Source of the DNA: an uncultured bacterium
GTDB lineage: Bacteria; Hydrothermota; UBA3072
DNA length: 64,000 bases
Assembly (NCBI GenBank): GCA_964418485.1
Contig: CAYQMH010000002.1
Coordinates: forward strand, 5,687-69,686
Direction of reading: 5' to 3'
Position numbers and translations under genes: made by a program. Numbering within the stretch: the first letter of the stretch is position 1; each line of letters begins with the position of its first letter. Below, piece by piece: positions 3,339 through 54,412 of this stretch. The notes beneath the pieces are model-generated. The model was not told where the DNA came from and did no database searches. It was given only the letters and a program-made list of their open reading frames with translations.

Positions 3339-3513
3339 CACGCAGAAACACAGACGACACGGAAAAAATGTTTTATTTAACCACGAAATATACGAAAAAC
3401 ACTAAACTTTTTATTACATTTTTTATAAAACCCAACTCATCCCAAAGATAGGAACAACAAATAACACGAATAGCACAAATGAATTGGGACGTAGATAAAC
3501 GCAGATATGCAGG
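3339..3513 (-). repeat. dispersed mosaic intergenic repeat, copy X1
   Basis: Roughly 85% identical in reverse complement to 7855-8010. Sub-modules recur at 53455-53580, 8993-9046, 54286-54412 and 62486-62550. Confidence 0.8.
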
Positions 3514-6085: not shown

Positions 6086-7381
6086 TTAATTTTCTAACGC
6101 GGATATCCTTTTTTCCAAACTTCCATTAGCTTTCCTTAGCTCCTCGTTTTCTTTCTTTAAACCAATAACATAGAGTGTCAATTCTTCAATCTTTTCCAGA
6201 AGTTTTGCCTGCATTTCACCAACTTTTATCCCGCTTTTGAGTACTACTTCTTCTTTTGGGATACCCGGCAGACTTTTGTTGCTTTTGATATGTTTTTCGA
6301 GTTTATCAAGAGGCATTAATTTATAATTGTCCGCGAATACAAAATCAGACCAGTTACTTTCTACGGTTATTTCCTTTGTTCTTATGTGACCGTTAACGGC
6401 AAGTTTGTAATTACCGGGATTAATCGTCCCGATGCCAACATTGCCAGAAATCTTTTGGACAAATAAACCCTTTTCTCCGTCGTTATCATTCCCTCGAATC
6501 AAAACTCCTTGTGCTCCAGCAATAATTCCATACTTATTATCTGTGTTCCTTAAATAAAGTTTCGGATAACAATCTGAGTCTTCAGTATTAATAATTAAAC
6601 GTGCATCGGCATCTGTTCGGTAAATTTGTACATCTCCGCCTTCTACTTCTAATTTTTCATCAGGATCATCCGTTCCGATTCCGACATTGCCTGTTATTAC
6701 AGAATTTCCTTGGACGTGTAATTGTTCCGTAGGATCATCCGTCCCGATACCGACACGACCTGACGGGTCCACAGTAATGGCAAGTCGGTCGAATCCTCCT
6801 CCAATCCCATAAAATTTTAGACCACCATAACCAGCCTGATATCCTTGTATTGATGCGCTTCCAAAGTACATTCTATTATTAAGAGGAATTTTTATATCGC
6901 CGTTCACTTCCAGTTTCTTTTCGGGATCCGTCGTCCCGATGCCGACTTTGCCTGTTATTATAGAATTTCCCGCAACGTGTAATTGTTCCGTAGGATCATC
7001 CGTTCCGATACCTACATTGCCGGAAAAATAACCTTTTCCAACGAAATAACCACCATATCCATTTGAATTTTCACTTTTTCCAAAAAGAGCCATGCCGTTA
7101 CTTGTTTTTACTCTTCCATATACGCCAATTGAATTATCTTCATAGTAAGAATCGGTTTTAGTGTTATAACCGTAAATGGCAGATCGATTCTCCTCCTCCG
7201 TTGGTCCAGCTGCGCTCCATTGTACATGCAATTTGCTGTTTGGATTCGTTACTCCGACACCGACCTTATCCGAACTTGTTGTTAATCTTACTTTAGAACC
7301 ATCGTCAGTCCAGCCGTTCTCTCCATAACTGACCATACTAACCAACAACAATACGAGTACTACAACACTTAATTTTTTCAT
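6086..7381 (-). CDS. secreted tail-fibre-like repeat protein with C-terminal S74 intramolecular-chaperone-like domain
   Basis: Signal peptide, duplicated 'GIGTDDPTEQLHV.GNS.ITG.VGIGT.DP..KLEV' units, and a C-terminal coiled-coil 'GIKVGEMQAKLLEKIEEL...' resembling the endosialidase chaperone domain. Confidence 0.5.
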   Translation of the reverse strand: MKKLSVVVLVLLLVSMVSYGENGWTDDGSKVRLTTSSDKVGVGVTNPNSKLHVQWSAAGPTEEENRSAIYGYNTKTDSYYEDNSIGVYGRVKTSNGMALFGKSENSNGYGGYFVGKGYFSGNVGIGTDDPTEQLHVAGNSIITGKVGIGTTDPEKKLEVNGDIKIPLNNRMYFGSASIQGYQAGYGGLKFYGIGGGFDRLAITVDPSGRVGIGTDDPTEQLHVQGNSVITGNVGIGTDDPDEKLEVEGGDVQIYRTDADARLIINTEDSDCYPKLYLRNTDNKYGIIAGAQGVLIRGNDNDGEKGLFVQKISGNVGIGTINPGNYKLAVNGHIRTKEITVESNWSDFVFADNYKLMPLDKLEKHIKSNKSLPGIPKEEVVLKSGIKVGEMQAKLLEKIEELTLYVIGLKKENEELRKANGSLEKRISALEN

Positions 7382-7854: not shown

Positions 7855-8010
7855 CCTGTTAATCTGTGTTCATCTGCGTCCCAATTCATTTGTGCTATTC
7901 GTGAGATTTGTTGTTCCTATCTTTGGGATGGGTTGGGTTTTTAAAAAACATAATAAAAAGTTTAGTGTATTTAGTGGTTAAATAGATTGGTTTTTTCGCT
8001 CTGTGGTTAA
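7855..8010 (+). repeat. dispersed mosaic intergenic repeat, copy X2
   Basis: Reverse complement of 3339-3513 at about 85% identity. Confidence 0.8.
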
Positions 8011-8818: not shown

Positions 8819-9053
8819 AGTAATAGGTCGGTCGAAGGATCGCCGATGGCTTAAGGCAGGCAAAAAAGAAAAAATTCGTGCTATTCGTGTAATTCCATTT
8901 GAAGTAAATAAAATATCAAAAAGTAAAAAGCAAAATGACAGATAAAAATTTAAAATAATACCTTGCCCTACCGCACATAACTAAAAAATATTTGTGTGAT
9001 TTGTGCTATTTGTTGTTCCTGTCTTTGAGATGGGTTGGGTTTAGCGGAAAGCG

Positions 9054-9162: not shown

Positions 9163-9209
9163 AGCGGTCAGCGGATAGCCGATTATCTTTGTGTTTTTTG
9201 TTTGGGGTG

Positions 9210-9926
9210 TTAGTAAACCTTCCCAATCCGTTTCCAACGGACTTTTCTGAAGAATGAAATTATAGGAACTTCGGATTTCCATGACCAGTAAATTAATAGA
9301 GGAGTTCCGGATATGTTGTCGATTGATACCGGTCCCCAGAATCTCGAATCATCGGATTCATCTCTGTTATCGCCCATAGCGAAAATATATCCCTCTGGGA
9401 CGACTATGGGCCCAAAATTATCCCTTACATAGGGATAATTCATTAATTTTCTTTCTTCCCATAAATTTTGAAGTTGTGCATTTTCTATAGTAAGAGGGGG
9501 ATATTCTTTTGGATCCCTGTGAGAGATATAATCCGCGTTTATGTCTTCGCCGTTTATGAAAAGAGTTTTGTGTTCTATGTAAACCGTATCTCCTTCTACG
9601 GCGGCACATCTTTTTACGAAATTCGTGTTTTTAAATATGCCGTCACCGCCCAGGGGATAGCGGAATACAATAATTTCGCCTTTTTTTGGGTTATTTATTC
9701 TGAGTAAATATTTGTCTGTAAAGGGTAGTTTTATACCGTACTTGAGTCTATTTACGATTAAAAAATCGCCGATAAGAATAGTATCTTTCATCGAGCCGGT
9801 AGGCACATTGAAGGTTTGAACCACAAAACCGCGTAGAAAAAGAATTATGCCTATTGCTATAATCCAGGATTTAACTTCTTTCCATATTTTTTGTTTGTCT
9901 GTCATTTTAGCCACTTCCCGTGACAT
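9210..9926 (-). CDS. lepB: signal peptidase I
   Basis: N-terminal TM segment, 'SMKDTIL.GD' Ser box, and the 'GDNRDESDDSRFWG' box. Confidence 0.8.
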   Translation of the reverse strand: MSREVAKMTDKQKIWKEVKSWIIAIGIILFLRGFVVQTFNVPTGSMKDTILIGDFLIVNRLKYGIKLPFTDKYLLRINNPKKGEIIVFRYPLGGDGIFKNTNFVKRCAAVEGDTVYIEHKTLFINGEDINADYISHRDPKEYPPLTIENAQLQNLWEERKLMNYPYVRDNFGPIVVPEGYIFAMGDNRDESDDSRFWGPVSIDNISGTPLLIYWSWKSEVPIISFFRKVRWKRIGKVY

Positions 9927-22155: not shown

Positions 22156-22330
22156 ATTTTCTCCATTTTTTGATATTTTGATACTACGAAGAGTTTTAGA
22201 TTTGTCAAGGGCTGATAGGTAGTATGTATTTGGTATTTATGAGTTTTAGATTTTCCTAAGTTCTGTGTTGCTGAGTGCCGATACCATTGGAAATCAAATA
22301 TTAAAATTTAAAAAGCAAAATGACGAGAAA

Positions 22331-22410
22331 ATCTGTTGGTCTGTGGGTCGGTTAGTCCGTTGGTCCGTTTAAAAAACACACCAACACACCCACGCACTAA
22401 CACACTAACA
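22331..22410 (+). repeat. dispersed heptamer-word repeat Z1
   Basis: Contains GTTGGTC and CACTAAC words. About 85% identical to 52247-52349. Confidence 0.7.
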
Positions 22411-22449
22411 AAATTTAATATTTTTATATTTTAGCGGCTTTGCCGCGCA

Positions 22450-22477
22450 TTGACATATTTTATATTCTCATTATAAT
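22450..22477 (+). promoter_or_regulatory. sigma-70 promoter giving a leaderless mRNA for the aminotransferase-like gene
   Basis: TTGACA (22450-22455), 16 nt, TATAAT (22472-22477), with the ATG at 22484. Confidence 0.5.
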
Positions 22478-22483
22478 ACAATT

Positions 22484-23620
22484 ATGAATTCTATTCTGGG
22501 GAAAATCGAAGATTCTATCATATCCAGAGTTATGAAAGCGGCGGAAGAAAGTAAAGCAATTAATTTTGCCGAAAATCCTATTGAACTCTTTACTCCTGAG
22601 TTTATTATCGAAAGTGCTAAAGAAGCTATAGACGGTGGATTTAACGGATATATAACCAGTGCAGGAAGAAAGCCTTTAAGGAAATTGACTTCTGAAATTA
22701 TATCCAGAGAAACCGGTGTAACTTTCGACCCCGAGGAAGAAATTACAATAACTTCAGGGGCTAGTGAGGCTTTTGTATCCTCCATGTTGAGTCTTGTCGA
22801 GGGCGAGAATGGAGTTGTTATACCAGAGCCTTTTTATGAAAATTATTTACCGATAACTGAGTTGAGTCGGGGTAAGCCTATTTTTTTATCTCTCGCGGAG
22901 CCCGATTATTCTTTTCATTTTACCGATTTTAAGAAATTGCCTACTTTTAAGGTTTTTATTCTTAATAATCCACATAACCCTACAGGAAAAGTCTTTAATT
23001 CAGAAGAAATTAAAGCTATTGGAAACACTGTTCTCGAAAGGGAAGGATATTTGATTGTGGATGAAACTTATAAGCATCTTTTGTATGAAGGTGAATATAT
23101 ATCGCCATTACAGATTGGAGGCCTTATAGATCGTACAATTATTATTGGTAGTTTTTCGACTATTTTTTCCGTGCGGGGTTGGAGATTGGGTTATGTTGCT
23201 GCAAAAGCTCCAATTATGAAAGAAATAAGAAAAGTTCACTATTATAGTTCTATTTCTGCGCCGGTACCTTTTCAGTGGGCATTTGAAAATTTCGATATTC
23301 AATCGAATTTTATAGAAAACATGAAGGAAAAATATAAGGAAAAGAGAGATTTTTTGTGTAGGGCACTCGAAAAAGCAGGATTTAGTTTCTATAACCCTGA
23401 AGGAGGATGTTACGTATTTGTTAATTTTGAGGATGTTTGGGACGGCAATGATTGGGGTTTTTATAAATATTTGCTGAAAAATAAAAATATTGCAATTGTT
23501 CCGGGATCGGCTTTTTATTCCGGTAAAAGTAAAGGAAAGAAGAAAGTAAGATTTACTTTTTCTCAGTCAGATTTCAATCTTAAGGAACTCGCCTCGATAC
23601 TTTCGGCAGGAATTACCTGA
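22484..23620 (+). CDS. class I/II aminotransferase-fold protein with the PLP-lysine replaced by Thr
   Basis: 'NNPHNPTG' and 'VDETY' motifs and the 'GW.LGY' motif are conserved, but 'SFSK' reads 'SFST'. Confidence 0.7.
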   Translation: MNSILGKIEDSIISRVMKAAEESKAINFAENPIELFTPEFIIESAKEAIDGGFNGYITSAGRKPLRKLTSEIISRETGVTFDPEEEITITSGASEAFVSSMLSLVEGENGVVIPEPFYENYLPITELSRGKPIFLSLAEPDYSFHFTDFKKLPTFKVFILNNPHNPTGKVFNSEEIKAIGNTVLEREGYLIVDETYKHLLYEGEYISPLQIGGLIDRTIIIGSFSTIFSVRGWRLGYVAAKAPIMKEIRKVHYYSSISAPVPFQWAFENFDIQSNFIENMKEKYKEKRDFLCRALEKAGFSFYNPEGGCYVFVNFEDVWDGNDWGFYKYLLKNKNIAIVPGSAFYSGKSKGKKKVRFTFSQSDFNLKELASILSAGIT

Positions 23621-23656: not shown

Positions 23657-23872
23657 CTTTGTGTCCTTTGTGAGCTTTGTGTGAATGATTTAGTCATTAG
23701 TCATCGGTCACTAGTCACAGGTCAAAAAAAATTATTTGTGCTATTCGTGCAATTTGTTGTTTCTCTTTGTTTTTGTGAGGGGTAGGGTATAAACAATAAA
23801 AATTCTTTGTTGTTTCTCTGTGATCTCTGTGTGTTTTTTTGTTTCTCTGTGTGCTCTGTGGTTAGAATCGTT
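23657..23872 (+). repeat. dispersed mosaic intergenic repeat Y1
   Basis: Reverse complement of 45789-45916 at about 85% identity. Built from CTTTGTG, TAGTCA and CTCTGTG words. Confidence 0.8.
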
Positions 23873-43372: not shown

Positions 43373-43732
43373 ATGAGAAATTTTAGAAACCTTAATGTAT
43401 GGAAAGAAGGAATTAGGCTTGCAGAAGAGGTCTACAAATTATCGGGATTGTTACCTGGTACTGAGAAAGATGGATTAAAGAGTCAGGTATGTAGATCATC
43501 TATATCAATTCCTTCAAATATTGCTGAAGGATGCAGTAGAGACAGTGAAGTATATTTTAAAAGATTTTTGGAAATCGCTTTAGTTTCTTCATTCGAATTG
43601 GAAACTCAATTTTTAATAGTTAAGGAGCTCGATTTGATTCCAAAGGACAAGTTAAATAAAGTATTGGATTTATTAGACAAAGAGCAAAGAATGCTTAATA
43701 TTTTTGTTGAAAAGCTGGAAGCTGACGGCTAA
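43373..43732 (+). CDS. four-helix-bundle protein (Avd-like, TIGR02436 family)
   Basis: Characteristic 'IPSNIAEGCSR' motif. Length is 119 aa. Confidence 0.6.
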   Translation: MRNFRNLNVWKEGIRLAEEVYKLSGLLPGTEKDGLKSQVCRSSISIPSNIAEGCSRDSEVYFKRFLEIALVSSFELETQFLIVKELDLIPKDKLNKVLDLLDKEQRMLNIFVEKLEADG

Positions 43733-45788: not shown

Positions 45789-45916
45789 CCACAGAGTGCA
45801 CAGAGGAAGAAAAAACGCACAGAGAACACAAAGGAACAACAAAGAATTTTTATTGTTTGTACCCCACCCCTCACAAAAACAAAGAGTAACGACAAATAGC
45901 ACAAATAACACAAATC
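45789..45916 (-). repeat. dispersed mosaic intergenic repeat Y2
   Basis: Reverse complement of 23657-23872. Confidence 0.8.
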
Positions 45917-46047
45917 TTTTTTGTTTTTACTATTTGACCATTTTTTAATTTAACTACTCAACTAATCCGAAGGATTGATTATTGGGATGCAGATTAACGC
46001 AGATTTAAAGGGATTTTTTTTGTTGTAAGAAGTGCTGAACCTGTTCC

Positions 46048-46482
46048 TCATTGAATTATATCTTTAAATATTTCTTCCTTTATTTTTGTCTTTTTTCCCC
46101 ATAAATCTTTTCGCATAGCAACAACAGCTTTTGTATAAGAATTATAATCTCTATTCTTTATAAAATTGGTAATAGTGTATATTACTTCATCGTTGGCAAA
46201 TATAATTCCATGTAATAATTCAGATTTAATTTCATCAATAAAATCTTCAAGAGTATTTAAATCTGGGCGGTGGTCTTTTACAAATCTAGTACCATGCTTT
46301 TCGAATTGTAATACAGTAAGCATTTGTATTATAATAGCTGCATATCTTTTTCGTTTCCATTCGTATTCTTCATTTTTTAAATCCTTCTTATATTGGAACC
46401 TATATTGGAAATATGCGCCTAAAATACTACCGAGGCCAATAGCAGTTAAGAATGATAAAAATAATTCAATAGAAATATTCAT
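46048..46482 (-). CDS. hypothetical N-terminally membrane-anchored protein
   Basis: One N-terminal TM helix and a charged soluble domain. Preceded by promoter-module copy 1. Confidence 0.35.
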   Translation of the reverse strand: MNISIELFLSFLTAIGLGSILGAYFQYRFQYKKDLKNEEYEWKRKRYAAIIIQMLTVLQFEKHGTRFVKDHRPDLNTLEDFIDEIKSELLHGIIFANDEVIYTITNFIKNRDYNSYTKAVVAMRKDLWGKKTKIKEEIFKDIIQ

Positions 46483-46566
46483 TATTTACTCTTAGGTAGT
46501 ACGACATTTCATACAGCTTGCCCATAGTCAAACTTGTTCGTTTATGCTCCTGTTTAATACTAGTTG

Positions 46567-46612
46567 TTGAATTCATGATAATTATTATAGTCATTTTACT
46601 TTAACTGTTAAG
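46567..46612 (-). promoter_or_regulatory. repeated consensus promoter module, copy 1 (-35 degenerate, TTAACA)
   Basis: Minus strand reads cttaacagttaaagtaaaatgacTATAATaattatcatgaattcaa. Five copies occur in the window. Confidence 0.6.
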
Positions 46613-46726
46613 CTTCAGCTACATAATGTTCCGCCTGTCCGCGTCTGGGGTGGATAGGGTAAAGGACATTAGCCCACAACGTATATGCTGTGTTAGGCGA
46701 TGCTCTGGTGGCCTTGTATTTGGACC

Positions 46727-47008
46727 TTATTGTTTCTTGGTATTTTCCTCAATCTTAACCTGACAAAGGGCTGTCTGAGCCTGTAATTTAAGCGAGAAGG
46801 CTTTCTCTCTGCCAATGTAAAAACCAATCGCTCCGAAGATTACTAAACCAAGAAGTGCTACACCTGCTCCCTTTACTGCGTATCCGACGATACCACCGAT
46901 TAAAGCACCTACAATTGTGCATTTCGCAATGATCGTATTTGCCTTTCTGTGCAGACGGTCGGCGAACTCGTATATAACTTTTGGGTCATATTGGACCATA
47001 TAAATCAC
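46727..47008 (-). CDS. small glycine-zipper membrane protein
   Basis: 'GALIGGIVGYAVKGAGVALLGLVIFGAIGFYIG'. GGAGGTG RBS. Confidence 0.4.
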   Translation of the reverse strand: MIYMVQYDPKVIYEFADRLHRKANTIIAKCTIVGALIGGIVGYAVKGAGVALLGLVIFGAIGFYIGREKAFSLKLQAQTALCQVKIEENTKKQ

Positions 47009-47193
47009 CTCCTTCTTGTGTTTTTTCGCTTAACATATTCATAAATGCATTGCAGATATCCTCCCAATTTTGCAGTGTAGATGCAATGCGGATATACCGT
47101 TTTTAGGAGAATTGCCAGAATATCCTTCTAAATATTTTTGCTGTATATCACTTTCTTTTTTAAAATTTAGATTGTCCATTTGAATACTAACTA

Positions 47194-47239
47194 TTGAATT
47201 CATGATAATTATTATAATCATTTTACTTAGACTGTCAAG
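47194..47239 (-). promoter_or_regulatory. repeated consensus promoter module, copy 2
   Basis: Minus strand reads CTTGACAgtctaagtaaaatgatTATAATaattatcatgaattcaa. Confidence 0.65.
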
Positions 47240-47344
47240 CATAAGAACAGCAAATGCCGTCAGCTGTCAGTTTTATCTCGAAACCCGTAACCACAACTTT
47301 AATCAACTACAAAGGACACATTTTTATATGTTCATCTTTATTTA

Positions 47345-47602
47345 TTATTTAATGATACTCTTAATTCTTTCTGCATATTTTCGAGATTCTTTTAAATCCA
47401 GGTTTAAGTTAAATGCCTCATTTAAAACTTGAGTCAATAACTTGTTAATCCTCTCAATCGAGCTATTTTCATCAATAAAAAAGAGAATATCTGTTGCTTC
47501 GATTTCGTAATTTTCTAAATCAGGAATTAGTTTGGCTCGCTCTCCTAAAGGATTCCATTCGGTTAATACTTGTTTGACTTTATTTATGTGTTCTTCATTC
47601 AT
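47345..47602 (-). CDS. hypothetical small protein downstream of the methyltransferase
   Basis: 85-aa ORF in the same orientation, 100 nt after the methyltransferase stop. Confidence 0.3.
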   Translation of the reverse strand: MNEEHINKVKQVLTEWNPLGERAKLIPDLENYEIEATDILFFIDENSSIERINKLLTQVLNEAFNLNLDLKESRKYAERIKSIIK

Positions 47603-47704
47603 TTTTGCCTTAGTGAAATATTTGCCGAATCATTATTCTTAAAGATTAATAATAAGTTCCAGCATAAAAGAAGTTTTTGTAAAGCAAAAAAAGGCATTAA
47701 CTTT

Positions 47705-48601
47705 TTATGCTGTGTTATACGGCATTTCAGTCGTATTTACACGTGCCTCACTAATAAACTTCTCCATTTTTTCAAACTTTATCTCTATTTCATTATATAA
47801 AGTTCGTCCTTCTTGTTGAAATCTTTTCGTTGCCTTCTCACAATATTCTGGATCGATCTCAACGCCAATACTATTTCTGTTAGTCTTCATCGCTGCGAGC
47901 ATTGTTGTCCCTGTTCCAGAGAAGGGATCGAGGACCGTGTCTCCCCAGAATGAAAACATTCTGACTAATCTATATGCCAACTCAAATGGGAACGGCGCTG
48001 GATGGTTTTTTGTTGATGTTCCATGAATATTCCAAATTTGACGAAACCATTCCTTATATTCTTTCTTATTAATCTTACTTAACTGACGTTGTTCAATTGT
48101 TGGTTTACGGTAGCCACCAGGTTTTCGTTGCATGAGGATAAATTCGATATCATTTTTAATGATAGCATTAGGTTCGTAAGGTTTACCGAAAAATTTAGTG
48201 CCATTATTAACCTCGTAAGTAGCTTTAGCAATCTTATACCAAATAATTGGATTTAAGTTGTCAAAACCTATTTTCCGGCATGATACTGCTATATCTGCAT
48301 GGAGTGGAACTACAACATGCCTGCCAAAATTTCTTCGTGATAAACACACATCTCCGACTACACAAATTAACCTTCCTCCAGGAACTAAAATACGGTAGCA
48401 ATGTTGCCAAACTTTCGATAGTTCTTCTATAAATTTCTCGTAGTCTTCAATGTGTCCCATCTGATTAGGATGTTCGCGATATCTTTTGAGTGTCCAGTAT
48501 GGAGGTGAAGTAATGACCAAATGAATACTCTCATCTGGTATGAATGATAGATTCCGGGCATCACCTTGAATTAAACGATGCGTTGTTTTTTTGTTGGACA
48601 T
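47705..48601 (-). CDS. beta-class DNA methyltransferase (N4-cytosine or N6-adenine; the SPPY motif favours N4C)
   Basis: Motif IV 'ITSPPYW' near the N-terminus and motif I 'DPFSGTGTT' near the C-terminus. This permuted order defines the beta class. Confidence 0.8.
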   Translation of the reverse strand: MSNKKTTHRLIQGDARNLSFIPDESIHLVITSPPYWTLKRYREHPNQMGHIEDYEKFIEELSKVWQHCYRILVPGGRLICVVGDVCLSRRNFGRHVVVPLHADIAVSCRKIGFDNLNPIIWYKIAKATYEVNNGTKFFGKPYEPNAIIKNDIEFILMQRKPGGYRKPTIEQRQLSKINKKEYKEWFRQIWNIHGTSTKNHPAPFPFELAYRLVRMFSFWGDTVLDPFSGTGTTMLAAMKTNRNSIGVEIDPEYCEKATKRFQQEGRTLYNEIEIKFEKMEKFISEARVNTTEMPYNTA

Positions 48602-49420
48602 TTATTTTGACACCCCGAGAGTTGAAAGGAGCATTCTGATTGCATTTTCGATAGATTCTTTTGCCTCGGACGCAAAAATAATACTGTCAATGTCCTTCGA
48701 ACGGAGGCGATTCTGAATATTGATATGTTCTTCGATAAACGGATAATAAACAACAGTCCCAAACTTACTGTTCGGAAAAGCTGACTTTAGCTTGGCAGCT
48801 TTATTAACGATTTCATCGCAGCGTTTATGAATATCCCTTCTGGCCTCAATTCTCTTTATATCTATTCCAACTTTAATATCACCCGACTTAGGGTTTGCAG
48901 CATCTAACTCAAACTGCTCTCCCTCAACTACGAACATTCGCTTATGAAACAGTAAAACACCAAATCGATTTAGACTTCCGAGGATTAGTTTCTCCCAGCG
49001 CCCCTTTCTCTTTCTAATTTCCTTATCGATAAAAGCCACTCTATCAATCTGGCTGAGTGATGGAATCTCCAGATAGGATGGTAAAAATGGTTTAATGTAT
49101 CCGGCAATCACTTTGGCTTGGTCGTTGTTCCATCGAGGACTATATGTATCTACGTTCTTGATAGAGATGTCCCTTTCGAGTGCTCTTGCTGCGACGTTAC
49201 AAGCAGCTAAAAGTGGTTTAAGAATAAGAGGATGCCTAACTATAGCTTTTGCAAGATCAAAAGCACTCATACTCGCAAAGACAATGACTTCTACCTCTCG
49301 CTTTTCTATAAAATTAGAGAACGCTTCTCGTAGTGTTTTTTCTATATCTTTTTGCCGTAGGTTTGCGTCATCCTTAACCCATTCCATGTAGTCCACATGA
49401 CTTCCATATTTATCTGGCAT
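48602..49420 (-). CDS. putative type II restriction endonuclease, cognate to the methyltransferase
   Basis: 272-aa ORF whose stop abuts the methyltransferase start (TAAATG) in the same orientation. It has no recognisable family, and type II REases are hypervariable. Confidence 0.4.
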   Translation of the reverse strand: MPDKYGSHVDYMEWVKDDANLRQKDIEKTLREAFSNFIEKREVEVIVFASMSAFDLAKAIVRHPLILKPLLAACNVAARALERDISIKNVDTYSPRWNNDQAKVIAGYIKPFLPSYLEIPSLSQIDRVAFIDKEIRKRKGRWEKLILGSLNRFGVLLFHKRMFVVEGEQFELDAANPKSGDIKVGIDIKRIEARRDIHKRCDEIVNKAAKLKSAFPNSKFGTVVYYPFIEEHINIQNRLRSKDIDSIIFASEAKESIENAIRMLLSTLGVSK

Positions 49421-49587
49421 TATATATCCTCCACATTGTCGGCCAAAATTTCACCTACCTTATTCATAGACAAAGTATCTCAATTTCTTTCTTTGACACG
49501 GTGTCGCAATAGAGATAGCTTTTTGCCGTTTTATAACTGTTTTTCTTGATAGGTGTTCTCTGTAAAAGTCTTCAAGATACATTGTTA

Positions 49588-49633
49588 TTGAGTTCATGAT
49601 AATTATTATAGTTATTTTACTTAGGCTGTCAAG
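49588..49633 (-). promoter_or_regulatory. repeated consensus promoter module, copy 3
   Basis: Minus strand reads CTTGACAgcctaagtaaaataacTATAATaattatcatgaactcaa. Confidence 0.65.
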
Positions 49634-49655
49634 TTTAGGAAAAACAAAATATTAT

Positions 49656-50486
49656 TTATTTTGGAATAGGTAATTTTATTATTCCGTCCTCAACAGAAAC
49701 ATATAGACTTTTTTCGTCAAATCCTTTACCTCCGAGGGCTACACCGATTGAAGTCTTTAGCGGTTTCTGAGAGAGATATATAAGTTTCCCGCTGATATCG
49801 ATTTTTATCGCGTTGTCGATTGTGCTTGCATATATATTGTTATTATTATCCCTGCACAAGTAAAACATTTTGGTATTATTGATAATTACCTTAGGTTTTG
49901 CGGAAATACTATCTGAATTTAATTTGAATTTGATTATTCTGTTTCCTTCTCTTGCATACAAATTTTCATTATTGCTGTCAATAACTATACTCGTAAGAAC
50001 AAACGGACCGGTGGTATCGCTTTTGAAAAAGATATCCTTTTTGCCTTCCGGAGTGATTTTATAAATGATACCTTTTAAATCATCTGCAACATAAATATTT
50101 CCATTGTTGTCCATCTTCACATCGAAACATAATGAAAATCCATCTGCGATTGTTTCGATATTACCGTCCGGAGAGACTTTTAGTAGTTTATTTCCTACTG
50201 TTATAAATATGCCATTGTTATCGTCGATATAAATTCCGGGACCGATAAAACTTCCTTCAAGTACGGCTGTATTAGTAATTTTTCCATCCGGTGTAACTTT
50301 GGATAATGTTCCATTACCCGTTTCCGGGGCGTTTATCATATACATTAAGCCATTATTATCAAAAGCAATACCATATGGTCTATTACCAGAAGTTTTTAGA
50401 AAATAATCCGGTTCATCCGAATTGGCAGATGCGCAACTCAATATCAATAAAATAGAAAAGATAAAGAAGTTTTTTAGTGACTTCAT
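49656..50486 (-). CDS. NHL-repeat/beta-propeller lipoprotein
   Basis: Lipobox 'ILSCAS'. Repeated 'NGNIYV.D...IYKITPEGK' blades. Confidence 0.5.
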   Translation of the reverse strand: MKSLKNFFIFSILLILSCASANSDEPDYFLKTSGNRPYGIAFDNNGLMYMINAPETGNGTLSKVTPDGKITNTAVLEGSFIGPGIYIDDNNGIFITVGNKLLKVSPDGNIETIADGFSLCFDVKMDNNGNIYVADDLKGIIYKITPEGKKDIFFKSDTTGPFVLTSIVIDSNNENLYAREGNRIIKFKLNSDSISAKPKVIINNTKMFYLCRDNNNNIYASTIDNAIKIDISGKLIYLSQKPLKTSIGVALGGKGFDEKSLYVSVEDGIIKLPIPK

Positions 50487-50503
50487 CCGGAGCCTCCTTA
50501 AAA

Positions 50504-50533
50504 TTATTATAATTGTTTTACTTAGGCTGTCAA
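50504..50533 (-). promoter_or_regulatory. repeated consensus promoter module, copy 4, fused directly to the RBS
   Basis: Minus strand reads TTGACAgcctaagtaaaacaatTATAATaattttAAGGAGGctccggATG. Confidence 0.7.
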
Positions 50534-50572
50534 AAATAGGAACAATATAATGATACGAAGAGCACGAATAAT

Positions 50573-50920
50573 TTATGTTTTTGCTTCTAAATCCTTTAAT
50601 ATCTTCTTAATCAAAGGTTTAATTTTTGGTATCTCTTTTTTTATCGTCTCCCAAACAAGTTCGTATTTTATTCCGAAATAAAAATGAATTAACCTATCTC
50701 TCATCCCAGCCATATCTTTCCAGGGAATAGCGGAATATTTCTGTTTAATCTCTTCCGCTATGCTTTTTGTTGCTTCTCCAATGATTTCAAATTTCCTTAT
50801 CACAGCGCTGGATACTATATCGTTATTTTTAAAAGATTCAACATCCAACCCTTTTACAAATTGCTCTATGGCATCCATTGCTGTTAGAATGTCTTTTAGA
50901 TACAGTTTTGGGTCTCTCAT
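50573..50920 (-). CDS. hepT: HepT-like (DUF86) HEPN toxin
   Basis: 'RDRLIHFY' R-x4-H-x-Y motif. Overlaps the upstream MNT gene by 4 nt. Confidence 0.7.
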   Translation of the reverse strand: MRDPKLYLKDILTAMDAIEQFVKGLDVESFKNNDIVSSAVIRKFEIIGEATKSIAEEIKQKYSAIPWKDMAGMRDRLIHFYFGIKYELVWETIKKEIPKIKPLIKKILKDLEAKT

Positions 50921-51225
50921 AGGTAAACAGCTTCCTTTAAAATGGTGTTTTTAATTTCTTCTCTGATTGTATCAACTGGGACAATATCTACTTTTAAGTT
51001 GAGTTCACTCTCTACATAATCTGCCAGTCCAACAAAATCAAAGAGCGTTGCACCCTCAGAAAATTCTACAAGAATATCGACGTCGCTATTTTCTTTTTGC
51101 TCTCCTCTCACATAAGAGCCAAAAATTCCTTTAATTTCAGCTTTATACTTTCGTTTTATTTCATCTTTTAGTTCTTGCAAAGACTTTATAATTTCCTGTT
51201 TAGTCATATTTATTCCTTCAGGCAC
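50917..51225 (-). CDS. mntA: MNT nucleotidyltransferase antitoxin
   Basis: 'GSYVRGEQKENSDVDILV'. Confidence 0.75.
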   Translation of the reverse strand: MPEGINMTKQEIIKSLQELKDEIKRKYKAEIKGIFGSYVRGEQKENSDVDILVEFSEGATLFDFVGLADYVESELNLKVDIVPVDTIREEIKNTILKEAVYL

Positions 51226-51362
51226 TGTTATGTTAAACTATAAACAAAATTTGCTGGAAAGTCAAGAGATGATGGAGAGATAGACGAAGTAATTTGTTTG
51301 TATCACGATACTAGCTAAATCACCGTAGTGCTTTTTGAGTTCATAAAATTTATTATAATTAT

Positions 51363-51578
51363 CTATTGTTGCTGTACTTTGTCATGCGCAGGGTGCTTTT
51401 CTATTACTATATTAAACTTCTCTTTTAATTCTTTTATTCCTTCTTCTGTGATGTAATGCTGGCTTTTGCGGCCTACTTTTTCTTCAATCATCCAGCCTTG
51501 TTTAACACAATAACTCAGGAAACTTCCGCCAACGTAAAATGGATTGATTTTATAAAGTTTCTTTTCTTTACTATCCAT
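51363..51578 (-). CDS. hypothetical small protein, possibly winged-helix DNA-binding
   Basis: 'LSYCVKQGWMIEEKVGRKSQHYITEEG' resembles a wHTH recognition helix plus wing. GGAGG RBS. Confidence 0.3.
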   Translation of the reverse strand: MDSKEKKLYKINPFYVGGSFLSYCVKQGWMIEEKVGRKSQHYITEEGIKELKEKFNIVIEKHPAHDKVQQQ

Positions 51579-51602
51579 TTTATAAATTTCCTCCTATTAA
51601 AA

Positions 51603-51643
51603 TCATGATAATTATTATTAGTTATTTTACTTAGGCTGTCAAG
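51603..51643 (-). promoter_or_regulatory. repeated consensus promoter module, copy 5
   Basis: Minus strand reads CTTGACAgcctaagtaaaataactaATAATAATtatcatga, followed by the RBS. Confidence 0.6.
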
Positions 51644-51739
51644 TTTAGAAGCAACAAATCACACGAATTGCACGAATAACACAAATTTTTTAAAGCTAAG
51701 AGCCAAAGGCGAAGGTTGAGGGCGAAAAGCTTTGTTTAA

Positions 51740-51774
51740 CAAAAAAACCACAAAAACGGGATGTTTTTGTGGTT
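51740..51774 (-). terminator. putative bidirectional rho-independent terminator
   Basis: 12-bp stem aaccacaaaaac/gtttttgtggtt flanked by A7 on one side and T5 on the other. Confidence 0.5.
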
Positions 51775-51809
51775 TTTGTAGATTCGAATGAATCTAAAGT
51801 GGAATTATA

Positions 51810-52169
51810 CTATCCAGTGTATTTGGCACCGCCGAAGCCAAGTATAGGGTAAAATATTATGGGAAGAAGTATCAAACCTGCTGTGAAACCACCACCCTGT
51901 CCGAATTTCTTCGCGAGTTCGATATTGACGATAATATATATTACTACGTTAACAAACGGTATGAGCCAGAGGATGAACCACCATAACGGTTTATCCACTA
52001 CTTCCAGTAAAACTATTATGTTGTAAATAGGTATTATAGCTGCCCAGCCTGGTTTTCCAGCTTTGGTGAAAATTTTCCACATACCGATAATGTACAAAAG
52101 AATGATTGCTAAATAGACAATAACTATACCTGCAGACATTCCTGCAGATGGATAATCTCCGTAATCCAT
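51810..52169 (-). CDS. small polytopic membrane protein (DUF5684-like)
   Basis: 'AGKPGWAAIIPIYN' and 'KFGQGGGFTAGLILLP' motifs. Confidence 0.4.
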   Translation of the reverse strand: MDYGDYPSAGMSAGIVIVYLAIILLYIIGMWKIFTKAGKPGWAAIIPIYNIIVLLEVVDKPLWWFILWLIPFVNVVIYIIVNIELAKKFGQGGGFTAGLILLPIIFYPILGFGGAKYTG

Positions 52170-52246
52170 AAATACACCTCCTTTTTTAATTGTTTAATAT
52201 CTTTATAAGAGATTTTCACTATAATGTCAATATGAAAAATTTTTTT

Positions 52247-52349
52247 GCCACGAAGACACTAAGACACAAAGTCCTTGGATCGTTGGTCTGTTGGTCGGTT
52301 AGTCCGTAAAAATAACGCACCAACACACCCACGCACTAACCCACTAACT
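52247..52349 (+). repeat. dispersed heptamer-word repeat Z2
   Basis: Matches 22331-22410. Also shares module 'gccacgaagacactaagacacaaag' with 53455-53480. Confidence 0.7.
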
Positions 52350-52430
52350 TTATTTAACGCTTGACAGCGAGTGTATTATTCCTTATTCTTTCGAGGGAAT
52401 TAATATTATTATGAGATTGGGGTTTATTGG

Positions 52431-53454: not shown

Positions 53455-53580
53455 AGCCACAAAGACACTAAGGCACAAAGAAAAAATTTTTTTAACCACG
53501 AAATACACTAAATTTTTTATTGTAATTTTAAAACCCAATTCCCCAAAAAGGTTAACAACAAATCACACAAATAGCACGAT
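53455..53580 (-). repeat. dispersed mosaic intergenic repeat X3
   Basis: Same orientation as X1, sharing 'aaccacgaaata.ac...aaacactaaa' and 'gaacaacaaata.cac.aatagcac' modules. Confidence 0.7.
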
Positions 53581-53649
53581 TTTTTTTTATGTTTTAATAT
53601 AGGTCTTGACATGGATAATTGATTATCTAAATTATATCAGGAGGTTAAA

Positions 53650-54285: not shown

Positions 54286-54412
54286 TTATTTGTGATATTT
54301 GTGCAATTTGTTGTTGCTAATTTTTTTGTGGTTGGGGTTGTTTTTAAAGCAGCAAAAAAATTGGGTGTGGAGTGGTGGTGTATCTGAGTTGATCTGCGTT
54401 CATCTGGGTCCT
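54286..54412 (+). repeat. dispersed mosaic intergenic repeat X5
   Basis: 'tttgtgatatttgtgcaatttgttgttgc' and 'gatctgcgttcatctgggtcc' modules are shared with X2. Confidence 0.6.

Follow-up and report, generated by a model that had tools for sequence, protein, structure and literature searches.

Why should a row of unrelated genes in a bacterial chromosome be headed, one after another, by nearly the same promoter-like sequence? The question is raised by a 64,000-nucleotide stretch of DNA (hereafter, the window) from a candidate division WOR-3 bacterium found in salt-marsh metagenomes, which carries the dcw cluster, ftsZ, ligA and dnaK/dnaJ of this organism in its flanks and, between ligA and an oxidoreductase gene, a block of small units with five copies of the repeat. 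The arrangement is identical in assemblies from three separate samples (loci L001, L002 and L003; related loci are numbered in the same way below), which excludes an assembly artefact.

Layout of the block

The features of the block, in window coordinates, are as follows:

45789–46040, no strand: mosaic repeats in the intergenic stretch that separates the last unit from ligA; they form the right-hand edge of the hotspot
46048–46482, minus strand: ORF144, a 144-aa protein without assigned function, cargo of copy A
46483–46629, minus strand: module copy A with short leader (TTAACA 46611, TATAAT ending 46584, ATG 46576, 3' motif at about 46507–46526)
46727–47008, minus strand: ORF93, a 93-aa glycine-zipper-like membrane protein, cargo of copy B
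47009–47256, minus strand: module copy B with long leader (TTGACA 47238, TATAAT ending 47211, ATG 47203, 3' motif at about 47024–47043)
47345–49420, minus strand: restriction-modification (R-M) unit of copy C (putative REase 48602–49420, type II N6/N4 MTase 47705–48601, 85-aa ORF 47345–47602)
49421–49650, minus strand: module copy C and leader (TTGACA 49632, TATAAT ending 49605, ATG 49597, 3' motif GTCTATGAATAAGGTAGGTGAAA at 49449–49471)
49656–50486, minus strand: beta-propeller (NHL-like) lipoprotein, 276 aa, the conserved resident gene of the locus (NHL below)
50498–50551, minus strand: module copy D (TTGACA at 50533, 16-nt spacer, TATAAT ending 50506), leader deleted
50573–51265, minus strand: MNT/HepT toxin-antitoxin pair (MNT 50917–51225, HepT 50573–50920) with its own promoter, TTGACT-17-TATAGT, at 51265–51237
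51329–51385, minus strand: degenerate sixth copy, F' (ATGACA-16-GATAAT, then TATAAT..ATGAACTCAA, also given as TATAAT..ATGAACTCAAAAAG), preceding MNT/HepT
51363–51578, minus strand: small ORF, 71 aa, possibly winged-helix, cargo of copy E
51603–51660, minus strand: module copy E (-35 TTGACA 51642–51637, -10 TAATAAT ending 51614, then ATCATGATTTTAATAGGAGG), heading the small ORF
51810–52246, minus strand: DUF5684 membrane protein, which opens the block and is headed not by the module but by an unrelated promoter (TTGACATTATAGTG...)

The original prediction had described a promoter-tagged defence and cargo island in which every transcription unit carries the module. Most units indeed do, but DUF5684 is served by an unrelated promoter and MNT/HepT also has one of its own; the assignment of units to copies needs a slight correction, in that copy A heads ORF144 alone and copy B heads ORF93. 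The emphasis on defence is not borne out, as only the R-M pair and MNT/HepT are defence-like, and the non-defence cargo comprises the lipoprotein, membrane proteins, a CPBP protease, a beta-lactamase-family protein, an FG-GAP protein, a polysaccharide lyase and others. An all-against-all blastp comparison of the ten island proteins returned no non-self match at E ≤ 0.01.

A consensus promoter sequence with a conserved leader

All five predicted copies were recovered on the minus strand exactly where they had been placed and, together with the degenerate sixth, occupy 46.5–51.7 kb of the window. Each follows the layout TTGACA-16-TATAAT, an ATG 6–7 nt downstream and an AU-rich leader, at whose 3' end a second conserved block, TATGAAYAAGTTATGTGAAA, continues the repeat. 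The repeat is thus real but longer than the ~45 bp first ascribed to it, spanning 57 nt in all five copies and 71–85 nt among A, B and C, with the leader in addition and an overall module length of 57–110 nt. The full 46-mer at up to 3 mismatches matches copies B and C, the remaining copies being matched by shorter cores, with shuffled-sequence expectations of 0.00 for both the full 46-mer and a 29-nt core and of 0.19 for an 18-nt core.

The copies are also the region's five best sigma-70-type matches, scoring 12, 12, 12, 11 and 11 of 12. The "textbook" promoter of the original prediction is confirmed, with the exceptions of TTAACA in copy A and TAATAAT in copy E, whose -10 reads this way owing to one extra spacer base. 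Comparison with housekeeping promoters confirmed that no spacer or flank sequence is shared with them. We regard the module as a putative strong sigma-70-type promoter, its activity being predicted from the consensus, and transcription is predicted to start at or beside the conserved ATG, a geometry of the kind seen in leaderless mRNAs.

Over the 22 distinct copies, conservation reaches 90–100% in the hexamers and in most of the spacer, and the spacer TAAGTAAAAT together with the stretch after the -10 retains 80–100% conservation in lineages with ~80% ligA identity. Such conservation of the spacer and the post-(-10) stretch exceeds what sigma-70 contacts need, and a bound regulator or gene conversion could account for it.

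Two of the window's copies depart from this layout. In copy D the leader is deleted, and the promoter is consequently fused to AAGGAGG-N6-ATG of the lipoprotein gene; the fusion to a ribosome-site-like sequence had been foreseen, with a spacing of N7 rather than N6. The same short form occurs in L004, L011, L014 and L017, and the full ~95-nt leader is retained before NHL in L006 and L016/L022. In F' the small ORF runs with its 3' end into the -35 part; an orthologous full module, the counterpart of F', precedes MNT-HepT in L032, and in L018 the unit of small ORF and F' leads into a polysaccharide lyase gene rather than MNT/HepT.

The module belongs to one gene and one locus

We compared the window with related loci from about a dozen genome variants. 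The 22 distinct copies identified by nhmmer all lie at the ligA/oxidoreductase locus, always upstream of and co-oriented with their cargo, and head 12 unrelated cargo units: NHL, the small ORF, MNT-HepT, the R-M unit, ORF93, ORF144, Rce1/CPBP, a beta-lactamase-family protein, a 269-aa protein, a 213-aa membrane protein, an FG-GAP protein and a polysaccharide lyase. The search suggested at the outset for copies outside the island yielded none in the rest of the 64-kb window (nhmmer, E ≤ 1), and 185,579 species genomes, scanned with a loose pattern, yielded four WOR-3 genomes, matched at this locus only, plus two chance matches in Bacillota. A metagenome scan gave three matches, each adjoining NHL, and a scan of viral contigs gave 0. 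This restriction to one locus holds for the MAG and metagenome contigs compared, and further copies could in principle lie elsewhere in the source genome.

The module precedes NHL in L004, L006, L011, L014, L016, L017 and L022, and in L006 and L016 a single module with full leader stands before this gene, which appears to be the ancestral state. The module is not a free-floating tag: it is the promoter and leader native to the conserved NHL-like lipoprotein gene of this WOR-3 clade, multiplied locally.

By the same comparisons, the intergenic slot between ligA and the FAD oxidoreductase gene is a strain-variable hotspot. The test set by the original prediction gives the answer that it foresaw: related WOR-3 genomes differ in the cargo that they hold between the two core genes and retain the module. 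The R-M unit is missing after NHL in L020 and L022, and apparently in L004 too, where the contig ends inside the leader; the post-NHL modules of these three loci bear B-type leaders, in L020 and L022 with other cargo. The same leader types precede differing cargo in different genomes; indeed, the leader of copy B is homologous over ~190 nt to leaders that head other genes in L005 and L020. In L007, L020 and L032, inserted genes form an operon between the module and NHL, and the module is not duplicated by these insertions.

Breakpoints within the module and probable exchange of cassettes

Homology breaks off inside the module or its leader at four independent points that differ in position, about -17, +10, +14 and +20; as the compared genomes are 9–20% diverged, these are resolved only to about 10–20 nt. 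The orthologous post-NHL module precedes the R-M unit in the window, Rce1 in L022, the beta-lactamase-family gene in L020 and a B-type leader in L004, where the 5' end of the copy resembles C and its 3' end resembles B. The small-ORF unit meets the next module at about -17 (window versus L032) and diverges at about +20 (window versus L018).

One probable exchange concerns the Rce1/CPBP cassette, which is 98.6% identical between L022 and L019 over a stretch that begins at ~+10 of the leader and ends ~130 nt beyond the stop codon, whereas the promoter part just upstream is 79.6%, the oxidoreductase gene 90.7% and ligA 90.1% identical. In L022 the cassette follows NHL; in L019, which is without NHL and without one module, it comes immediately after the oxidoreductase gene. 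NHL and MNT-HepT, in turn, are 88–92% identical where ligA and the oxidoreductase gene are only 75–81% identical, and cassettes are generally less diverged than their flanks. The best reading of these comparisons is that the copies mark the points at which units may have been gained, lost or swapped between lineages. Crossover points at differing positions in the module fit homologous rather than site-specific recombination, and homologous recombination is the mechanism that we infer.

We consider it probable that the module is a portable expression signal that doubles as homology for recombinational shuffling, a chromosomal analogue of the phage elements known as PeSLs. The NHL promoter and leader would have been multiplied within the hotspot, such that each accessory unit received a copy of its own, and newly arrived genes would gain a ready-made strong expression signal. 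As direct repeats of 60–110 bp, the copies could provide homology for RecA-type recombination: recombination between neighboring copies would delete a unit and leave one chimeric module, and the same process in reverse, or a double crossover involving DNA of a related lineage, would insert or swap one. Repeats of this size are short for efficient RecA recombination.

Alternative explanations

A second possibility is that the module is a shared operator, through which one transcription factor binding the spacer or palindrome would co-regulate all units, recombination being incidental. The conservation of the spacer and post-(-10) stretch over the 22 copies is in line with this, as are the near-palindrome ATNATAATTATNAT, which overlaps the -10 and +1, and the small, possibly winged-helix ORF that sits between two module copies in the window and in L018. 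However, an AT-rich palindrome of such size is weak evidence, and the small ORF is missing from most module-bearing loci (L004, L006, L020, L022 and L032) and decayed in L007, and its homologues form only 5 clusters, one of which (L035) stands in an unrelated context without the module. Its AF2 model has a pLDDT of 75, its match to the PaaX winged-helix region is weak, and its winged-helix fold matches (E > 0.2) are not significant. We treat it as a cargo gene; a part in the mechanism is not demonstrable. Since a common operator would also leave the module breakpoints and the 98.6% identical cassette unexplained, we find it unlikely as an account of the locus, even though co-regulation and recombinational shuffling are compatible and need not exclude each other.

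We do not favor dedicated cassette machinery, the reading put forward in the original prediction. On that reading, a recombinase whose gene lies elsewhere would use the module or leader as its attachment site and would insert and excise promoter-tagged cassettes site-specifically. Unit boundaries do coincide with modules, the module stays while the cargo varies, the near-palindrome surrounds the -10/+1, and the 3' leader block also stands without a promoter before a PRTase gene in L018. Yet no integrase or recombinase Pfam family was found in the island or among the genes called in the 10 kb on each side, nor was a recombinase found in the syntenic loci of relatives, and attC-like inverted repeats are lacking at unit boundaries; these results uphold the earlier statement that this is no attC-based integron and, at the same time, speak against a dedicated system. 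The scatter of the junctions (about -17, +1, +10, +14 and +20) does so as well, and the right junction of the Rce1 exchange between L022 and L019 falls in unrelated mosaic repeats. A site-specific system of this type is accordingly quite improbable, and we rate equally low the proposal that the module, perhaps with the 3' block, is the recognition site of a putative recombination system elsewhere in these WOR-3 genomes. Such a system would capture and excise self-expressing cassettes and, if real, would be an integron-like platform lacking intI and attC, with a promoter for each cassette.

Serial tandem duplication of the NHL promoter, each followed by illegitimate insertion of a gene and with no ongoing mobility or exchange of cassettes, would suit a native promoter confined to its locus and the operon-like insertions of L007, L020 and L032. 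It is nonetheless very improbable in view of the Rce1 cassette, which at 98.6% identity against about 90.5% in the flanks occupies different positions in L022 and L019, of the same leader types heading different cargo in different genomes, and of cassettes generally less diverged than their surroundings. Finally, it is scarcely credible that the repeat is a MITE or IS fragment with an outward promoter, that it acts as a structured cis-regulatory RNA or sRNA, or that it arose as an artefact of metagenome assembly. It is indeed a repeated intergenic sequence of 60–110 nt, transcribed if its promoter is active, but it shows no terminal inverted repeats, target duplications or dispersed copies, has no relevant Rfam match, folds no better than shuffles and recurs identically in three independent assemblies. 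More specifically, Rfam gave no gathering-threshold match and, at E ≤ 1, none over module or leader, the three weak sub-threshold matches (E 0.02–0.34) belonging to unrelated families; leader folds are less stable than those of shuffles (z +0.9 to +1.6), and a possible hairpin is seen in the long leader only (three sequences).

Relation to known systems

The recombinational shuffling that we favor has precedent in phage PeSLs (PMC2839356, PMC4122927) and in putative mobile promoters (PMC3488235). PeSLs, or promoter-early stem-loops, are mobile regulatory cassettes of T4-type phages (Arbiol et al. 2010, PMC2839356; Comeau et al. 2014, PMC4122927) and count circular excision products (mini-circles) among their traits. 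In the PeSL model, homologous recombination takes place between motifs, each unit has its own promoter, and a single chimeric repeat is predicted at an empty site (PMC2839356), which matches the pattern seen in the relatives. PeSLs and the module are alike in being repeated intergenic motifs of ~100 bp that contain a consensus sigma-70 promoter and cluster in a hyperplastic region, directly upstream of variable genes mostly without assigned function. In both, the motif delimits the indels and replacements that distinguish relatives, and one chimeric motif is left at the empty site; such motif-bounded changes are seen here in the chimeric copy of L004, in L019 versus L022, and in the window versus L032 and L018. 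Unlike PeSLs, the module resides in a bacterial (WOR-3) chromosome rather than a T4-type phage, at a single locus and as a single sequence family derived from a resident gene's promoter, and its repeat includes a long AU-rich leader with two conserved blocks. The G+C-rich stem-loop terminator component of PeSLs was not found: no G+C-rich hairpin lies in or beside the module, and the sole terminator-like match near a copy is a weak 6-bp stem at 47246–47261.

Putative mobile promoters (Matus-Garcia, Nijveen, van Passel 2012, PMC3488235; PMC3575422) are defined by upstream regions of one genome that precede non-homologous coding sequences and yet share an alignment of 50 nt or longer with an identity of at least 80%. 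By this definition the five window copies link into one family (A–B 62 nt/87%, B–C 63/86%, B–E 67/84%, C–E 56/93%, C–D 50/84%), and both phenomena are left unexplained by IS, MITE or riboswitch. Families of mobile promoters were, however, described as generally dispersed in genomes and without a defined mechanism, whereas the module copies stand in tandem in one hotspot, are conserved between lineages and sit where recombination breakpoints and cassette exchange are seen.

Like integrons, the island lines up small, strain-variable, co-oriented units in tandem at a single place in the chromosome; it differs from them in having no integrase, no attC hairpins and no single Pc, in providing each unit with its own promoter and in crossover points that are not fixed.

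Chromosomal hotspots of horizontal gene transfer, or flexible genomic islands, lie between core genes and are maintained by homologous recombination in their flanks. PMC4033161 treats an example. The island resembles such hotspots in its variable cargo, defence genes included, between the same two core genes (ligA and the oxidoreductase gene) and in its freedom from mobile-element genes. What sets it apart from a plain hotspot is the presence of internal promoter-leader modules, which split it into individually exchangeable and putatively individually transcribed units.

Copy number and distribution of the promoter module

Minus-strand reading of 45.5–52.8 kb of the window, together with pattern searches, recovered all five module copies of the original prediction at the positions it had assigned to them: copies A to E, heading respectively ORF144, ORF93, a putative restriction-modification (R-M) unit, the resident 276-aa NHL-like lipoprotein gene (NHL) and a 71-aa small ORF. 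The full 46-mer matches the second and third copies with ≤3 mismatches and shorter cores recover the remaining ones; shuffled sequence would be expected to yield 0.19 matches with the 18-nt core and 0.00 with either the 29-nt core or the 46-mer. In a repeat search, all five copies group into one 57-nt family and copies A, B and C into a 71-nt family, and the same five are the top sigma-70-type matches of the region (TTGACA-16-TATAAT; 12, 12, 12, 11 and 11 of 12). No further module was detected in the 64-kb window by nhmmer (E≤1) besides a degenerate sixth copy at 51329-51385. The window lies within a 100.9-kb JGI metagenome contig whose best named LigA homologues belong to candidate division WOR-3, and the arrangement is identical in contigs from three different samples.

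Across the window and related loci, nhmmer identifies 22 distinct module copies, every one of them 5' of and co-oriented with the next ORF, which together head 12 unrelated cargo units. A strict pattern has 0 matches in GTDB species genomes, and a loose one, run on 185,579 species genomes, has true matches only in four WOR-3 genomes, each at the ligA/oxidoreductase locus; two further matches, in Bacillota (L012, L013), fall by chance within an unrelated leader. The three module matches of a metagenome pattern scan all adjoin the lipoprotein gene, viral contigs have 0 and thus give no sign of phage origin, and a more distant lipoprotein homologue (L036, 72% identity) carries no module, which argues for confinement to a narrow clade. 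Judged from this distribution, the module is the lipoprotein gene's native promoter and leader in a narrow WOR-3 clade, multiplied locally, rather than a genome-wide element.

Module anatomy and the nature of the leader

Parts of the module, 5' to 3'
5' part, ~15-35 nt: resembles genome-wide mosaic intergenic repeats (..ATTTGTTGYTYCTAWRC)
Promoter: -35 hexamer, strongly conserved 16-nt spacer GTCTAAGTAAAATAAT, TATAAT
After TATAAT: 6-7 nt, then a conserved ATG (ATGAAYTCAAYAATTAGTATTC)
Middle part of the leader: variable or deletable
Second conserved leader block, 3' of the variable middle part: TATGAAYAAGTTATGTGAAA, present in eight leaders
3' end: Shine-Dalgarno sequence and start codon of the cargo

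The TATAAT-N6/7-ATG arrangement is the geometry predicted for a leaderless mRNA, and one housekeeping gene of the window, an aminotransferase gene at 22484, shares it. This gene looks leaderless (22450-22510, plus strand), with TTGACA-16-TATAAT-6-ATG and no Shine-Dalgarno sequence; its first 8 nt, ATGAATTC, are identical to the module's conserved ATG region, and it is the only such case among the 55 long ORFs of the window. A conserved leaderless peptide starting at the module ATG was rejected: the ORFs vary from 10 to 54 codons in length, the frame is broken by a 1-nt indel between the window B leader and that of L005, the ATG has become ATA in the L022 copy preceding an Rce1/CPBP gene, and substitutions show no third-codon-position bias. 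The ORFs may still be translated. In relatives with a full leader, a 30-codon ORF from the module ATG ends in a TGA overlapping the lipoprotein start codon (ATGA; L006 11551-11643, L022 7913-8003), and this overlap hints at a leaderless upstream ORF translationally coupled to the resident lipoprotein gene.

A riboswitch or structured sRNA is rejected from folding, as all five leaders are less stable than shuffled controls (z +0.9 to +1.6); Rfam returned nothing relevant, whether searched with the gathering threshold or with E≤1. For both reasons, we take the leader to be a 5' region that is AU-rich and unstructured. A possible hairpin in the long, B-type leader, ATATCCGCATTGCA...TGCAATGCGGATAT, encloses GGGAGGA (window ~47043-47097, minus strand; L020 ~7220-7280 and ~9170-9240); we do not regard it as established since the alifold prediction draws on three sequences with few compensatory changes.

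Variable cargo behind orthologous modules

DNA pattern scans, together with contigs retrieved via LigA and lipoprotein homologues, supplied the syntenic ligA/oxidoreductase locus for about a dozen lineages.

Architectures from the oxidoreductase/DUF5684 side to ligA (M, module copy)
L006, L016: M with full ~95-nt leader-NHL
L004, L011, L014, L017, window copy D: M fused to the NHL ribosome-binding site
L022-L031: M-NHL, then M-Rce1/CPBP
L019: M-Rce1 alone, without NHL
L020/L021: M-213aa-NHL, then M-beta-lactamase family, then M-269aa
L032: M-MNT-HepT-NHL
L007: M-(decayed small ORF), then MNT, then M-215aa-NHL
L018: M-small ORF, m' (partial module)-polysaccharide lyase, DUF3795, M-FG-GAP, (3' leader block only)-PRTase-NHL

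Directly 3' of the lipoprotein gene, the window, L004, L020 and L022 have an orthologous module with a 5' flank common to all. What follows it differs: the R-M unit in the window, a B-type leader in L004, a beta-lactamase-family gene in L020 and Rce1 in L022. Cargo thus varies between relatives while the module is conserved, as had been anticipated. In L004 the 5' end of this module resembles copy C and its 3' end copy B, the chimera expected if the R-M unit were bounded by a crossover within the module. The small-ORF unit adjoins the next module at about -17 in the window, and an intact module occupies that position in L032; in L018, the same small-ORF and partial-module unit has other cargo behind it, with divergence from about +20.

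Between L022 and L019, the Rce1 cassettes share 98.6% identity over a stretch that begins at about +10 of the leader and ends about 130 nt past the stop codon, whereas the 49 nt of promoter immediately 5' are 79.6% identical and the flanking oxidoreductase and ligA genes 90.7% and 90.1%. In L019, the cassette stands directly beside the oxidoreductase gene, the lipoprotein gene and one module being missing. Lipoprotein and MNT-HepT units are likewise 88-92% identical where flanking core genes are 75-81% identical.

In L007 (GCA_016930175.1, 14521-14960, compared with window 50573-51600), a decayed small ORF is accompanied by a deletion of HepT, the MNT stop being fused to the HepT 3' end, so that MNT is left as an orphan antitoxin-type gene. 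One sediment, sample 3300031624, contains three coexisting lineages whose arrays at this locus all differ: the window contig (Ga0315545_1000065), L004 (Ga0315545_1120282) and L025 (Ga0315545_1004015).

Probable recombination and known precedents

The original prediction of a promoter-tagged, strain-variable array proves right, the copies being confirmed and the cargo differing behind orthologous modules. The dedicated cassette machinery it also envisaged is probably wrong: no recombinase or transposase families are found among island proteins or ≤10 kb on either side, in the window or its relatives, and in an inverted-repeat search the unit boundaries showed neither terminal inverted repeats nor attC-like sites. 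Integrons and MITE/IS elements are poor models, as the module lacks every defining feature of both. Furthermore, the four breakpoints fall at differing module positions and to the right of Rce1 the junction falls in unrelated mosaic repeats, a pattern that fits homologous recombination using any repeats at hand and favors it over site-specific crossover. We therefore consider it probable, from these comparisons, that a predicted strong promoter and leader has been reused in two ways, as an expression signal that is portable and as homology by which units are gained, lost and exchanged through recombination. The resident gene's predicted strong promoter and leader would have been copied before accessory units, each thereby becoming self-expressing, and the copies flanking each unit could serve as portable homology for its turnover.

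The lack of precedent had been overstated. In T4-type phages, promoter-early stem-loops (PeSLs) combine a repeated consensus early promoter with a stem-loop and precede variable ORFs in hyperplastic regions, and recombination between them deletes or inserts ORFs, leaving one chimeric PeSL (PMC2839356; PMC4122927). The WOR-3 module, as read from sequence comparison, appears to behave in the same way; unlike PeSLs, it has no stem-loop, is chromosomal and derives from one resident promoter, long leader included. By the working criteria for putative mobile promoter families (PMC3488235), applied to the window copies, it also qualifies as one. Literature text searches returned no earlier description of such a module in WOR-3.

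The case bears on how horizontally acquired genes are expressed and how hotspots turn over without mobile-element genes, to which it would be one compact answer from a little-known uncultured phylum. It would carry the principle of PeSLs over from T4-type phages to a bacterial chromosome, and 'mobile promoters' would gain a concrete setting in recombination, with one cassette common to lineages about 10% apart. Salt-marsh metagenomes with several coexisting lineages and differing arrays offer a defined, testable system.

Cargo genes of the window island

Pfam and PADLOC confirm DUF5684 and MNT/HepT among the island genes, identify the lipoprotein as a weakly NHL-like beta-propeller and place a type II MTase beside an unassigned 272-aa protein, a putative REase; further genes encode small membrane or uncharacterised proteins. 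Only the MTase and MNT match PADLOC defence models, and the defence content originally ascribed to the island was overstated. The DUF5684 promoter is unrelated to the module, and MNT/HepT has its own promoter (TTGACT-17-TATAGT) besides the degenerate sixth copy.

A role for the 71-aa ORF, which lies between two module copies, as the module's regulator is without support. It is missing from most module-bearing loci, its AF2 model (pLDDT 75) gives no significant fold match and is at best weakly winged-helix-like, and one homologue among only 5 clusters stands in an unrelated, module-free context; for these reasons, we treat it as cargo.

Mosaic repeats and neighboring variable slots

The genome-wide mosaic intergenic repeats consist of degenerate 8-9-nt tandem units (ATTYGTGNN.., GGTCGGTTAGTCCGTTGG.., CACGAAGACACTAAGACACAAAG, CTCTGTGCACTCTGTGG) and are hypervariable between relatives. 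Most modules have one unit type as their 5' flank, and one L022/L019 recombination junction falls within such repeats.

Mosaic repeats
Window: 3457-3485, 7888-7940, 8990-9042, 22328-22426, 23734-23786
Window: 45789-46040, 51660-51740, 52247-52365, 53456-53590, 54288-54340
All related loci as well, e.g. L007 12040-12800

Between ftsZ and ligA, a 23S_rRNA_IVP (four-helix-bundle) gene (window ~43373-43732, plus strand) is also present in L018 and missing from this slot in L007, L009, L010 and L017, marking another small variable insertion point. The adjoining slot, from dnaJ to DUF5684/oxidoreductase, is also strain-variable and holds defence genes in some lineages.

Contents of the dnaJ-side slot
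L022 199-5528: Kiwa KwaA/KwaB and a D12 methyltransferase
L018 20069-21950: AbiJ N-terminal-domain protein
L007 17080-18902: DUF5677
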